64,000 bases of DNA from Escherichia coli (GTDB taxonomy: Bacteria; Pseudomonadota; Gammaproteobacteria; Enterobacterales; Enterobacteriaceae): assembly GCF_044324785.1 (NCBI RefSeq), contig NZ_CP172127.1; one strand, 5' to 3'. The first letter of the stretch is position 1. Every line of letters starts with the position of its first letter. Below the pieces are notes generated by a model. That model saw nothing but the letters and a program-made list of their open reading frames with translations. It searched no databases and was not told the origin of the DNA. Shown one piece after another: positions 4,006 to 52,724 of the stretch. Made by a program: the position numbers and the translations under genes.

Positions 4006-4824
4006 TCAGAAAAGAGAAGATTGCTGTGGAATAGCCGGAACTGCTCCGATCTCTGGAAGCGTTTTACGTAAGTCTTCCCACAGGGTATGTACCAGTTCCG
4101 GGGCCTGGGCAATATCTGGCGTATGTAAAAAAAGATAAGGCGTAGTGGTCTGATGCCACTGCGCTAATTTTTGTAACCAGACCTGAAATAATTCCCGGTT
4201 TTGCGTCATATCATCACTACCGATAAAACGGATCAGCGGATTTGTCGCCGTCAGTACAGCATGTACCGGAACTTTAGGTTTTTTTCGTTGAGCGTCGCGA
4301 ATAGCTTCACTGTGTGGACGTGCTGCATGAACCGGGCGGCTGTCTAAAATCACCCGATTAACGCCGCGCTGATGTAAACCGCGATTAAGTGTTTGTTCCT
4401 CTTCCCCTTTGGCGAAAAACTGTGGATGGCGGACTTCCACACCATAATTAAACTCGCCGGGAAGAGAGTCGAGAAAATGCCAAAGCGCAGGCAGATCCCG
4501 TGGGCCAAATGTGGCAGGCAGTTGCAGCCAGTATTGCCCAATGCGCGGCGCTAACGGTGACATGCGGGTCAAAAATTCAGTCACTAAATCATCGCAATGC
4601 CGTAATGCTGCCTGATGCGAAATGGTCGCCGGAAACTTAAAACAGAAGCGAAAATTATCTGTGGTCTGCTCACGCCAGCGCAGGACAACCTCGGATTTCG
4701 GCAGGGCGTAAAGCGTGGTGTTGCCCTCCACACAGTTAAAGTGGCGGGCATACTCTTCAAGGCTGGTGATCCCCAACCGCACCCATTTAGGATGCGACCA
4801 TTGCGGCAGACCGATGTAAATCAT
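4006..4824 (-). CDS. yecE: UPF0759 family protein
   Basis: 272-aa ORF recognised as YecE; 4-nt overlap with yecD. Confidence 0.88.
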
Positions 4825-5387
4825 AATGCGTGGAGGATCTCTTCCACACTGCGCACACGGGCGATGCGTGGGTAGATATGGGTGATGCTGTTATTGTGCT
4901 GCTCGGCGCTGGCGGCGCTGCAGGCGTCTTCGGCAATCACCAGATTAAAACCGAGTTCCCAGGCATTGCGGGCGGTGGATTCAACACCGATATTGGTCGA
5001 GATCCCACATAATACTATTGTATCGATACCCCGGCGGCGTAATTGCAACTCCAGATCCGTACCGTAAAACGCACCCCATTGACGTTTGATGATTTCGATA
5101 TCACTGTCAGTTGCACCTAATGCAGCAGGATGTTGCCACCAGTTTTCGGGCAACACTTTAGCGGGGGAAGGGGCATCAACCGGCTGTTTTAATGCTTCGG
5201 CATAATCGGCAGACCAGCCAACGCGCACCAGAAACACGGGCTGACCGCTGGCGCGAAATTTCGCCGCCAGCTGCCCGGCGCGAATAACCACCTCATCGGC
5301 AGTATGTGGACCTCCGGCAAAAGGTAAGATGCCTTCTTGTAAATCAATCACCACCAGCGCGGTGGTTTTAGCATTAAGTTCAAGCAT
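4821..5387 (-). CDS. yecD: Isochorismatase-family hydrolase
   Basis: ORF 4821..5402 begins at TTG; trimmed to ATG at 5387 (188 aa) preceded by AGGAG SD. Confidence 0.85.
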
Positions 5388-27326: not shown

Positions 27327-27337
27327 CTTCCCACTTC

Positions 27338-28507
27338 TTAAGCCGCAACCGTCTGTGTGACGGATTTACGCTGGCCTCCATGGGCAGAAACGACGAGTCC
27401 CGCCGCTTGTAATTCCAGTATGCCCTTGCGTTTGATGTTGAGCGCCGCGTTGATATCGCGGTCATGTTCAACTCCACACTCTGGACACTGCCAGATGCGC
27501 TTATGTAATGGCATCTCCGACATTTTGTGACCGCAGCAGTGGCAGGTCTTCGAACTGGCGAACCATTGATCCAGTTTCACCAGATGCACACCTTTCTCTG
27601 TTGCTTTGTATTCCAGTTTTGTGATGAATCCAGACCATCCAGCATCGCCTATCGCACGAGCCAGATGGTGATTTTTCATCATATTTGCCGTTTTCAATGT
27701 CTCGACAATTACCGCTTGGTTTTCGTCAACAATTGCGCGAGATAACTTGTGCTGGAAATCGGCACGGGCACTAGCTACCCGTTCGTGAACGGCTGCAAGT
27801 TGTATTCTGGCTTTGCGCCTGTTTGCGCTCCCTTTTTTCTTACGGGACAGTGCTTTCTGCTTCCGGCGCAGGTTGCGACTTGCATTGATTAGGTGGCGGG
27901 GACTGGCAATTTTATTGCCGTCCGATTTGATGACAAAATGCGCCAGCCCCATATCCAGCCCTGTCACATTTGATATCAGTGCGGGCTTTGCCGGCGCTTC
28001 CATCCCGTCGTCACAGAGTAACGACGCGTAGTATTTCCCGGTTGCGCTGCGGCTCAACGTGATACTTTTCAGCATTCCCGTAATTTCACGATGTAAACGC
28101 GCTTCAATCGGCAAGATTTTCGGTATTTTTATCGCACCATCAAGGACTTTTATGCCAACACAATGATAGCTCGATTGTCTGCCGTGTTTACTTTTAAAGG
28201 TTGGTTTACCTGCTTTCAGTTTCGGATTGAAAAAGTTAGAAAAAGCCACGTCGAGGTTAATTACCGCCTGCTGCAACGCAATAGAATCATATTCTTTAAG
28301 CCATCCATACCGGCGGGATTTCTTCGCCACTGCAAGCAGTGGTTTGAGGTCTTTACGCGGGTTTAAATTTACGCGGTGCCGCTGGTAAGAATGTTTCTTG
28401 ATATGCAGAGCTTTGTTGTACGCAAAACGCACTGCACCGAACTGGGCGTTGATAAATTCAGCCTGTTCTGGTGTCGGGTAGATGCGTACTTTTGTTGCTC
28501 TTAACAT
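27338..28507 (-). CDS. tnpB: TnpB (IS605 OrfB family; RuvC-like RNA-guided endonuclease)
   Basis: 389-aa ORF; RuvC-I GLDMG, RuvC-II E in VIVETL, zinc finger CHCCGH...CPECG, RuvC-III HDRDINAALNI. Confidence 0.9.
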   Translation of the reverse strand: MLRATKVRIYPTPEQAEFINAQFGAVRFAYNKALHIKKHSYQRHRVNLNPRKDLKPLLAVAKKSRRYGWLKEYDSIALQQAVINLDVAFSNFFNPKLKAGKPTFKSKHGRQSSYHCVGIKVLDGAIKIPKILPIEARLHREITGMLKSITLSRSATGKYYASLLCDDGMEAPAKPALISNVTGLDMGLAHFVIKSDGNKIASPRHLINASRNLRRKQKALSRKKKGSANRRKARIQLAAVHERVASARADFQHKLSRAIVDENQAVIVETLKTANMMKNHHLARAIGDAGWSGFITKLEYKATEKGVHLVKLDQWFASSKTCHCCGHKMSEMPLHKRIWQCPECGVEHDRDINAALNIKRKGILELQAAGLVVSAHGGQRKSVTQTVAA

Positions 28508-28563
28508 AATCAGCGCTCATTGATATAATGCTTTTATTTTAACACTTTAGGTGGATATATCAA

Positions 28564-28989
28564 TTGAGTAATCATGATGATTTACTGGCGGGATTTCTCC
28601 GCAAACGACACAGTGTCAGTAAGCTGGTTGTGCACCTTATTTTTACGACAAAGTATCGACGCAAACTATTCGACAGTCAGATGATCGCTCAGTTGCGTGA
28701 GGCTTTTGGCTCCGCTGCGGCAAAGCTTGAATGCGAAATTATTGAGATGGACGGGGAGCCAGACCATGTACACCTGCTGGTTGCCTACCCGCCAAAACTG
28801 GCGGTCAGTGTGATGGTCAATAATTTAAAATCGGTATCATCACGTTTGCTACGCCAGCAGAACGCGCATTTACGTATGCAGAGTAAAACGGGGCTTTTGT
28901 GGTCGAGATCGTACTTTGTCTGTAGCACCGGAGAGGCAACGATTGAAACGCTCAGAGCCTACGTTCAGAGTCAGTCAACACCTGATTGA
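28564..28989 (+). CDS. tnpA: IS200-type Y1 (HuH) transposase TnpA
   Basis: 141-aa ORF; TTKYRR block, HuH motif HVHLLV, C-terminal catalytic Tyr (RAYVQSQ); only in-frame start is TTG at 28564. Confidence 0.85.
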   Translation: MSNHDDLLAGFLRKRHSVSKLVVHLIFTTKYRRKLFDSQMIAQLREAFGSAAAKLECEIIEMDGEPDHVHLLVAYPPKLAVSVMVNNLKSVSSRLLRQQNAHLRMQSKTGLLWSRSYFVCSTGEATIETLRAYVQSQSTPD

Positions 28990-49435: not shown

Positions 49436-49723
49436 ATGAACGAAGTTGTAAATTCAGGCGTGATGAACATTGCGTCTTTGGTTGTATCGGTGGTGGTTCT
49501 TCTTATCGGGCTCATCTTGTGGTTTTTTATCAATCGTGCCAGTTCACGGACTAACGAACAGATTGAACTGCTTGAGGCGTTGCTGGATCAGCAAAAACGT
49601 CAAAATGCACTGTTACGTCGTTTGTGCGAAGCAAACGAACCAGAGAAAGCAGATAAAAAGACCGTTGAGAGTCAAAAATCGGTTGAAGACGAAGATATTA
49701 TTCGTCTGGTCGCCGAACGATAA
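49436..49723 (+). CDS. yebO: Uncharacterised membrane protein YebO
   Basis: 95-aa ORF with N-terminal TM helix. Confidence 0.85.
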   Translation: MNEVVNSGVMNIASLVVSVVVLLIGLILWFFINRASSRTNEQIELLEALLDQQKRQNALLRRLCEANEPEKADKKTVESQKSVEDEDIIRLVAER

Positions 49724-50392
49724 TCCTTCCTCAATCTTGAGTAACCCCGTCGTTGAAGGGTTACTCAATTCATCCTGATTATACGCACTGCCATGGTGCA
49801 ACTGCTTCAAATTAAAACTCTGGTCTGACTTCAAATAATTATCATATTATTTATTTGCGTAACGGGATATCAGAAAAAGATATTTAGCCCATTAATTTAT
49901 TAGGATGTTTACATCGGATTTGTGATTAAGTGTGGTATTATTTATTAGCGAAACGTTTCTCTCTTGATTTTTTTGCGCATTCATCAATTTTTCTTATTTT
50001 AAATTTACAATACCTTTGGCGATTGACTTCTCTTTGGGGTGATTGATAGCCGTTAACTGACTGTTTTATGAGAAAAAGTGATATAACTTTTTATTCATTG
50101 CATAGCAGAAAATGTGATATTGCACGCACTATGTAATAACTTCTCCCATTGGCCTGGAACAACTGAACTTATTGAACTATGTTAGAAAATACGTCAGTTT
50201 AAGTATCTGCCTGAACTGGCAAGGTTAAGCACAATGATATATCGGCGCGTATTCCGTTGCATAAGTGTGCAAAAAAAGTGGAAGACGTATCGAGATTTGT
50301 GCGTCTGATCGAGACATGTTTAAAAATGGCTTGCCATAATTAACGTTGTATGTGATAACAGATTTCGGGTTAAACGAGGTACAGTTCTGTTT

Positions 50393-50536
50393 ATGTGTGG
50401 CATTTTCAGTAAAGAAGTCCTGAGTAAACACGTTGACGTTGAATACCGCTTCTCTGCCGAGCCTTATATTGGTGCCTCATGCAGTAATGTGTCAGTTTTA
50501 TCTATGTTATGCCTGCGGGCGAAGAAAACAATCTAA
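50393..50536 (+). CDS. yobF: Small protein YobF (47 aa)
   Basis: ATG..TAA encoding [47 protein letters not shown], 12 nt upstream of cspC; below ORF-track cutoff. Confidence 0.8.
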
Positions 50537-50548
50537 GGAATTTTTCAA

Positions 50549-50758
50549 ATGGCAAAGATTAAAGGTCAGGTTAAGTGGTTCAACGAGTCTAAAGGTTTTG
50601 GCTTCATTACTCCGGCTGATGGCAGCAAAGACGTGTTCGTACACTTCTCTGCTATCCAGGGTAATGGTTTCAAAACTCTGGCTGAAGGTCAGAACGTTGA
50701 GTTCGAAATTCAGGACGGTCAGAAAGGTCCGGCAGCTGTTAACGTAACAGCTATCTGA
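50549..50758 (+). CDS. cspC: Cold-shock-domain protein CspC
   Basis: 69-aa ORF; RNP motifs KGFGFI and VFVHF. Confidence 0.96.
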
Positions 50759-50803
50759 TCGAATCCACTGATCTGAAGTGTGAATACGCTTCAATCTCGC
50801 TAT

Positions 50804-50830
50804 AAAGCCTCGTCGAATGCGAGGCTTTTT
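50804..50830 (+). terminator. Rho-independent terminator after cspC
   Basis: aaagcctcg-tcgaat-gcgaggcttt hairpin followed by T-run. Confidence 0.8.
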
Positions 50831-50923
50831 ACTTTGCTTTCTCTTCGCTCCAGTCGTTCGGATATTTGCCCGCCGCGTGATTCGCGTTACACTTGCGGCC
50901 TTTAGTATCCTGCCGGAGTTGTC

Positions 50924-52296: not shown

Positions 52297-52329
52297 GACA
52301 ACGTCCTGACCGGGGTATCCATAAAACAC

Positions 52330-52521
52330 ATCATCGCCCCCAGCAAACATGCATACATGAACGACAAACCGCGATGGTTTTCGCGTTCATGCAGGCATAG
52401 CGATTGATGTGCATATGGTCTCGCCTGACTGAAAGTGTTCAGTCCGTACGTGCCACGTTTTGCAACGAGTATGTTGACACGTACATTTCCGGAATCTGGA
52501 AATCGGCTACTCCCCAAATGA
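52330..52521 (-). promoter_or_regulatory. yybP-ykoY family Mn2+ riboswitch in mntP 5' leader
   Basis: Long leader between mntP start and promoter; minus-strand sequence contains the conserved GGGGAGUAG element; established that E. coli mntP has this riboswitch. Confidence 0.6.
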
Positions 52522-52724
52522 GGGCGCAACCTTAACATATTTTGAGAATATAAAACAACTGTTGGAATATATTATTTCATTGCTTTATTGATAACGATTT
52601 TCATTTAGATTTATATATCAATGAAACGTTAAAATAAATAACAAATAAGGGAAGGGGTAATATAGCCTAAGCTATGTCTGATTATTAAAAATACACTAAA
52701 CATAGCTTTGGCTAAATTGATAAC

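Follow-up and report, generated by a model that had tools for sequence, protein, structure and literature searches.

The 669-bp gap between yebO and yobF-cspC of Escherichia coli as a probable composite transcriptional control region

The window analysed here, a 64-kb stretch of Escherichia coli DNA, carries the genes kdgR, yobH (minus strand), mgrB, yebO, yobF, cspC and rlmA in this order, with 669 bp devoid of any annotated gene between the yebO stop codon, which ends at 49723, and the yobF ATG at 50393 (Table 1). Ranked by the annotation of an identical strain, this gap is the longest of all CDS-free gaps in the 64 kb, ahead of yobD-mntP (428 bp) and pphA-yebY (395 bp), in agreement with an earlier note on this DNA that had called it the largest gene-free stretch. 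The same note had described it as strongly AT-rich, and this too holds: GC content is 35.4%, compared with a median of 41% for the intergenic gaps of the window and 50.3% for the window as a whole, and the lowest-GC 300-bp stretch of all 64 kb (49801–50100, 29.3%) lies inside the gap. Nothing is annotated at the equivalent position in K-12 MG1655 (1907592–1908260) or in strain 266917_2, to which the 669-bp query is 100% identical (98.2% to the K-12 strain NEB 5-alpha), and the gap sequence was found in 5423 of 5426 complete E. coli genomes. Polymorphism within E. coli, counted in 77-bp segments, consists mostly of private alleles of the query strain. As the window and K-12 align without indels over the gap, coordinates were converted as window = 50393 + (1907591 − K-12 version 3 position), version 2 numbers being 1976 lower.

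Table 1. Features in and around the yebO-yobF gap, in window coordinates.
Feature	Position	Strand	Details
yebO	49436–49723
Gap	49724–50392		669 bp
Stem-loop	49737–49768	+	14 nt past the yebO stop codon; 11-bp stem TTGAGTAACCC/GGGTTACTCAA (49737–47/49758–68), 10-nt loop
Block I	49942–49995		LacI-family-operator-like palindrome AGCGAAACGTTTCTCT at 49947–49962
22-aa ORF	50068–50136	+	judged no gene
Block II	50096–50124		~70–95 bp upstream of the P2 start; from the alignment of 70 loci
P2	50155–50191	+	−35 TGGAAC 50155–60; 17-nt spacer; −10 TATGTT 50178–83; C at −13; start A 50191
Block IV	50257–50272		TTGCATAAGTGTGCAA; inverted repeat TTGCA-N6-TGCAA; +66 to +81 of P2, −110 to −95 of P1
P1 with conserved upstream block	50295–50367	+	upstream block ATTTGTGCG.C.GATCGAGACA and A/T tract TTTAAAAAT (50319–27); −35 TTGCCA 50331–36; 17-nt spacer; extended −10 TGtGATAAC 50351–59; mapped start G 50367
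P1 leader	50367–50392	+	26 nt; yobF SD GAGG 50376–79
yobF	50393–50536
cspC	50549–50758

The DNA around the operon offered several observations of its own. The second-longest gap, yobD-mntP (window 52297–52724), has a GC content of 38.6% with 300-bp stretches near 31%, and we take it to be the mntP leader carrying the yybP-ykoY manganese riboswitch. Between ptrB and yebE (window ~27337–28988) lies ISEc46, of the IS200/IS605 family, with its transposase and a TnpB/InsQ RNA-guided endonuclease gene; it is presumably the IS mentioned in the earlier note. Record NZ_CP026723.1 names cspC ‘cspE’ and skips the locus tags C4R22_RS03745 (yebO-yobF) and RS03720 (yobD-mntP), at which features formerly called may have been withdrawn or left unlisted. 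The cspC-rlmA spacer measures 165 bp in E. coli (window 50759–50923), and rlmA starts ~2 kb past cspC in Salmonella, Citrobacter, Klebsiella and Enterobacter (loci such as L007, L054 and L071), a distance implying one or more extra genes there. Finally, in E. coli strain 361 (locus L084, NZ_CM132949.1) IS1A, at 4070–4840, follows the first 69 bp of the gap (window 49793 onward), and yobF, cspC, rlmA, mntP, yobD, manXYZ and yoaE are all gone, up to a truncated CSS-motif domain gene at the position of pdeD. This is a natural cspC-deletion strain, and it agrees with the reported IS hotspot at yobF-cspC in ageing colonies.

Two transcription starts have been mapped within the gap, both reading into yobF. 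Kim et al. 2012 (PMC3415461) placed the one nearer to yobF, here P1, at 1905641 (version 2; 249 reads, 26-nt leader), and SMRT-Cappable-seq (PMC6131387) placed the yobF-cspC start at 1907617 (version 3; 3′ end at 1907153), which is the identical base in an independent data set. The second start, P2, lies at 1905817 (version 2; 107 reads, 202-nt leader) in the map of Kim et al., which lists no further start on either strand from 1905818 to the yebO start at 1906591; the 50 nt printed before each start in that paper fixed the window positions of both. P1 conforms to the sigma-70 promoter pattern, with five of six −35 bases, a 17-nt spacer, an extended −10 and a start 8 nt past it. Genomic SELEX in vitro (Shimada et al. 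2014) found more than two RpoD holoenzyme peaks ‘within 670 bp spacer’, for which it prints TTGCCA-17-GATAAC, the same hexamers as those of P1, and flagged the spacer HNS, giving in vitro backing to the suggestion in the earlier note of a nucleoid-protein binding region. With SELEX positions converted on the assumption of MG1655 version 2 numbering, an RpoN/NtrC peak (1905652) maps onto P1 and an RpoS holoenzyme peak (1905768) falls at ~50240, ~50 bp from P2.

Conservation of the region was assessed in 80 Enterobacteriaceae loci fetched via YebO, as YobF is too short to seed a locus search; loci without yebO thus fall outside the sample. The E. coli gap was compared by BLAST with 78 orthologous spacers, and 70 distinct sequences were aligned globally. 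By BLAST, 50295–50548 is 85–95% identical in nearly all 78 loci (79% in one Escherichia lineage), and upstream of 50295 the gap aligns throughout just within Escherichia, at 79–83%. This boundary precedes the P1 start by 72 bp, which suits a promoter with an upstream element. Within the invariant block upstream of P1, the 16 bases at 50298–50313, TGTGCgtctgaTCGAG, are centred at −61.5 from the P1 start, which is the classical class I position for CRP; just six of ten core bases match the CRP consensus.

The global alignment brought out short conserved islands that BLAST had missed, comprising the core of P2 and three blocks, I, II and IV. Nearly all of the 70 loci share the P2 core, cTGGa..gaA....tTGagCTAtGgTa.AAAag, its −10 context (C-TATGTT/C-TATGGT) is likewise conserved, and the P2 −10 lies 209–212 nt from the yobF ATG in all seven loci measured, which represent six genera (E. 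coli, two Salmonella subspecies, Klebsiella, Enterobacter, Citrobacter and Lelliottia). A C at −13 is typical of sigma-S-friendly promoters, suggesting that P2 may be used preferentially by sigma-S; in a run-off array, sigma-70 was favoured over sigma-S for the yebO-yobF spacer. In Salmonella 4/74, a start at 1893683 (SalCom), Tn5 insertions ‘in 5′ UTR’ at 1893502 and 1893511 and a further insertion, at 1893137 in cspC, would fit a P2 ortholog with a leader of ~203 nt. We take P2 to be one of EcoCyc’s two promoters, yobFp1/yobFp2. The proposal in the earlier note of a long regulated leader thus survives in part: P2 does give a 202-nt leader, but this covers just 202 of the 669 bp and shows no excess folding, and P1, the stronger start, lies 26 nt from yobF. 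That note had also named start mapping as a check, with a start close to yobF as part of what would count against it; P1 is such a start, and P2 lies farther upstream.

Downstream, the gap runs into a known RNA family. The Rfam model RF01766 (cspA thermoregulator) matches 50373–50833 at 139.7 bits against a gathering score of 78, over model positions 1–428, with only 20 nt of the match (50373–50392) inside the gap, and it is likewise matched at full length in seven other genera. Since the alignment begins at model position 1, the P1 leader represents the start of a cspA-type 5′ UTR that encloses the yobF ORF. To our knowledge, cspC is not known as a cold-induced gene. Pairing of the sRNAs OxyS and CyaR with the yobF leader has been published.

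At the opposite edge, the stem-loop that the earlier note had placed at 49743–49770 is real, although those coordinates were about 4–6 nt off and the helix comprises 11 bp, with the arms gagtaaccc/gggttactc at 49739–47 and 49758–66. For the 86 nt around it the fold energy is −22.8 kcal/mol (z = −2.78 relative to shuffled sequence), and the stem-loop is retained, with changes, across Escherichia species. No U tract follows, AATTCATCC coming next, and a terminator scan makes no call there. SMRT-Cappable-seq (PMC6131387) reports a yebO-yobF-cspC read-through class starting at 1908567, the yebO start, so that some yebO transcripts pass through the stem-loop and the whole gap into yobF-cspC. The stem without a U tract and the reported read-through led us to reject an intrinsic (Rho-independent) terminator; the structure probably serves as a 3′-end stabiliser or a weak pause site for mgrB-yebO transcripts.

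Of the three blocks, block I is the most elaborate. Its 10-mer CGAAACGTTT is found in 71 of 78 spacers at 547–741 nt (mostly ~550–620) before the cspC ATG regardless of whether an extra MBL-fold gene is present, and in most genera this 10-mer heads an element of ~65 bp, A(G/T)CGAAACGTTTttaTTGCC..tGa.GCA..GTCAT.....TTTCATTATTTTGGTGCA, after which conservation ends abruptly. The palindrome is followed in other genera by ..TTGCC..GGCA.GTCAT.....TTTCATTATTTTGGTGCA, a 3′ half that is degenerate in E. coli; only the 5′ part remains in E. coli and only the 3′ part in Klebsiella. A profile search with nhmmer found one copy per locus, scoring 27.9 bits in E. coli and 50–63 elsewhere, and none further in the 64-kb window, and a repeated or mobile element was rejected on these grounds. 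The 17-mer AGCGAAACGTTTCTCTC is invariant among four Escherichia lineages, with ~80% identity over the rest of their spacers. The palindrome fits the LacI/GalR-family operator pattern in its symmetry, central CG and family half-site, with its left half and centre present in 71 of 78 loci, and shares 15 of 16 bases with the K-12 rbsD operator AGCGAAACGTTTCGCT. No mapped start lies within 200 bp of it in K-12. Block I can be read as promoter-like in other genera (TTGagg-17-CATTAT, start at GGTGCA, palindrome centred near −53); these hexamers are degenerate in E. coli, where no start is mapped. Neither an Rfam family matching block I nor a literature link of RbsR or another factor to the site was found.

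Blocks II and IV lie on either side of P2 and, in most genera, belong to a single motif type. Outside Escherichia, block II appears as a GCATAACTATGC-like palindrome followed by an A-run and block IV as cGCATAACTGTGCag or GCATAACTGTGC, the same type of 12-mer. Block II is a candidate transcription-factor site for P2. A stable RNA hairpin at block IV is not conserved, amounting to only 3 bp in most genera, which makes a DNA site the likelier reading. Our literature search found no published description of the three conserved blocks. They were compared by eye with the consensus sequences of Cra, PurR, MalI, CRP, NtrC, sigma-54, sigma-E, sigma-32, NsrR, MntR, CytR, Lrp, Fur and DnaA without a convincing fit; among the sites considered, we take the RbsR operator to be the sole convincing one.

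Together, these features make it likely, in our judgement, that the 669 bp, which follow the 3′ end of mgrB-yebO, form a composite region controlling transcription of the yobF-cspC operon. The start sites and the in vitro binding of RNA polymerase and H-NS come from published experiments, and the conservation pattern was computed here. Beginning at yebO, the stem-loop, having no U tract, would allow some read-through into ~430 bp of very AT-rich DNA that binds H-NS in vitro and carries blocks I and II. P2, with the C at −13 of its −10, would then start transcripts with a 202-nt leader at 50191, and P1, which is a good sigma-70 promoter and has both an extended −10 and an upstream A/T tract, would start them at 50367, its 26-nt leader running into the cspA-like 5′ UTR that contains the yobF ORF. 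The 22-aa ORF would play no part. P2 and P1 would be modulated by H-NS and by factors acting at blocks I, II and IV, and much of the AT-richness may reflect promoter and H-NS-type architecture together with weak constraint.

Binding of transcription factors is our preferred guess for what blocks I, II and IV do; the 236 bp between block I and the P2 start count against its acting on P2. A bolder suggestion, which we offer tentatively and regard as rather doubtful, is that the distal blocks might constitute an ancient, undescribed cis-regulatory module of the cspC operon bound by specific transcription factors, one candidate being a LacI-family sugar sensor such as RbsR, which would tie carbon status to CspC levels. 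Its parts would, with as much reserve, be the palindrome resembling the rbs operator, the partner motif TTTCATTATTTTGGTGCA of that palindrome and, bracketing P2, the paired GCATAACT(A/G)TGC boxes. A succinate-growth phenotype is common to rbsR and cspC mutants of Salmonella, and its authors gave an explanation other than an RbsR-cspC link; were such a module real, it could connect the two.

A different history for the AT-rich part of the gap is suggested by a gene of 326–341 aa that follows yebO after ~16 nt in 31 of 78 loci (L009 3808–4803, L031 3810–4835 and 29 others), whose product has the Lactamase_B_2 (PF12706) metallo-hydrolase fold (MBL-fold). Among its carriers are Lelliottia, Leclercia, Kosakonia, Phytobacter, Buttiauxella, Cedecea, Franconibacter and several Enterobacter; no copy is present in Escherichia, Salmonella, Citrobacter, Klebsiella and others, and the spacers accordingly fall into two length classes, with and without it. 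A weak C-terminal remnant in Enterobacter hormaechei-type loci (L053 and L070, 3835–3931; tblastn E 0.3–1.9) points to loss by deletion, and, outside the blocks, 49770–50140 aligns only within Escherichia, at ~80%. On this evidence 49770–50140 could be functionless filler, the decayed scar of an MBL-gene deletion drifting towards A+T, with the last ~240 bp (P2 and P1) alone of importance. We consider this unlikely: no trace of the gene is found in the E. coli gap by tblastn even at E = 10, which is why the idea of an MBL-fold pseudogene or deletion scar in E. coli was set aside, and blocks I and II, inside the supposed filler, are conserved family-wide at near-constant distance. Moreover, where the gene is kept, ~520 bp separate it from yobF and block I lies ~60 nt past the stop codon of the gene, implying that the long upstream region is ancestral, predating the loss of the gene rather than resulting from it. 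The stretch from block I to the P1 block measures 219–422 bp, with a median of 290 and a median GC content of 42%.

It is very unlikely, in our view, that the gap instead hides an unannotated gene, whether for a small protein (the 22-aa ORF or a frame over block I) or for a small RNA that might be encoded on the opposite strand. The 22-aa ORF does exist and has no SD, the earlier note having called it weak evidence for lack of a clear one, and the checks which that note had proposed, conservation and ribosome profiling, both turned out negative. Its frame is destroyed in three Escherichia lineages (in E. albertii the ATG is ATA and 1 nt is deleted; in two others codon 3 is a stop), and 1907600–1908199, the span containing it, is empty in the ribosome-profiling sORF catalogue (Stringer et al. 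2021 supplement). Lying upstream of the P2 start, it is also left out of both the P1 and the P2 transcripts, and on these grounds we rejected it as a gene. The short frame ..CH..FIILVH.. crosses block I in most genera, but with no SD, variable stops, absence from 10 of 58 distinct sequences and invariant bases that leave no third-position variation, it was judged non-coding. For the opposite strand, an in vitro run-off array gave a sigma-70-favoured (versus sigma-S) signal with the probe set of the spacer (K-12 1905616–1906284, forward strand) and a signal of the same preference for an ORF antisense to cspC (c2230), and in E. cloacae a promoter-like site on the minus strand has a −10 overlapping the conserved ATTATT. 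Against these stand the K-12 start-site map (PMC3415461), in which an antisense promoter in the gap finds no support, and the possibility that the opposite-strand run-off signal arose from cDNA artefacts. Rfam yields no known RNA family upstream of 50373 in E. coli or in seven other genera, which speaks equally against a main role as RNA, in the form of a long leader before yobF with riboswitch- or thermometer-like structure. That reading could appeal to the nearly constant length of the P2 leader across genera, to the cspA thermoregulator family downstream and to the two sRNAs that target the yobF leader, and we hold it to be extremely improbable. The P2 leader folds no better than shuffled sequence (z = −1.08), on which account a structured RNA was rejected and its constant length is unexplained by RNA structure; 50192–50255 and 50273–50294 within it are unconserved, the block IV hairpin is not maintained, and P1, the more used start, bypasses the long leader altogether.

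As a global RNA chaperone, CspC influences RpoS, heat-shock transcripts and virulence programmes, and adaptive mutations recurrently hit the yobF-cspC operon. Reading the gap as a two-promoter control region with no hidden gene prevents its mis-annotation, and the practical gain is a set of conserved blocks at exact positions, as targets for mutagenesis aimed at learning what controls cspC. For the most part, the gap is known and ordinary, being the documented dual-promoter, H-NS-binding (in vitro) control region of yobF-cspC. The sole new lead is the family-wide conserved blocks upstream of and around P2, notably the rbs-operator-like palindrome, and these are leads and no discovery. If block I were truly an RbsR-type operator, sugar sensing would act directly on a stress RNA chaperone.

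Compared with known systems, the two promoters agree with what is already catalogued: RegulonDB/EcoCyc list yobFp1/yobFp2 (cited in PMC13162491), and the two starts 26 and 202 nt upstream of yobF, with TTGCCA-17-GATAAC, match the published maps; the parts of the database entries cited in the literature consulted do not include the family-wide conservation of the P2 core, the fixed distance from P2 to yobF or blocks I, II and IV. Block I resembles the rbsD operator of RbsR in differing by one base and in sharing the central CG and a 10-bp perfect palindrome; it is unlike that operator in overlapping no mapped promoter, in its 236-bp distance from the P2 start and in a right half that is degenerate (GTTTTT) in most genera. 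With the H-NS-bound AT-rich promoter-upstream regions described by Shimada et al. 2014, the gap shares its character as the lowest-GC DNA of its window, its flag for H-NS SELEX sites and its place upstream of constitutive sigma-70 promoters, whereas, as core-genome DNA present in nearly every E. coli genome, it shows no horizontal acquisition. P1, compared with the cspA promoter, likewise has an A/T-rich upstream tract and a similar −10 context. In contrast, the P1 −10 lies ~26 nt farther from the ‘cold-box’-like segment than in cspA, and the yobF-cspC leader differs from that of cspA in containing a translated ORF of 47 codons, yobF.
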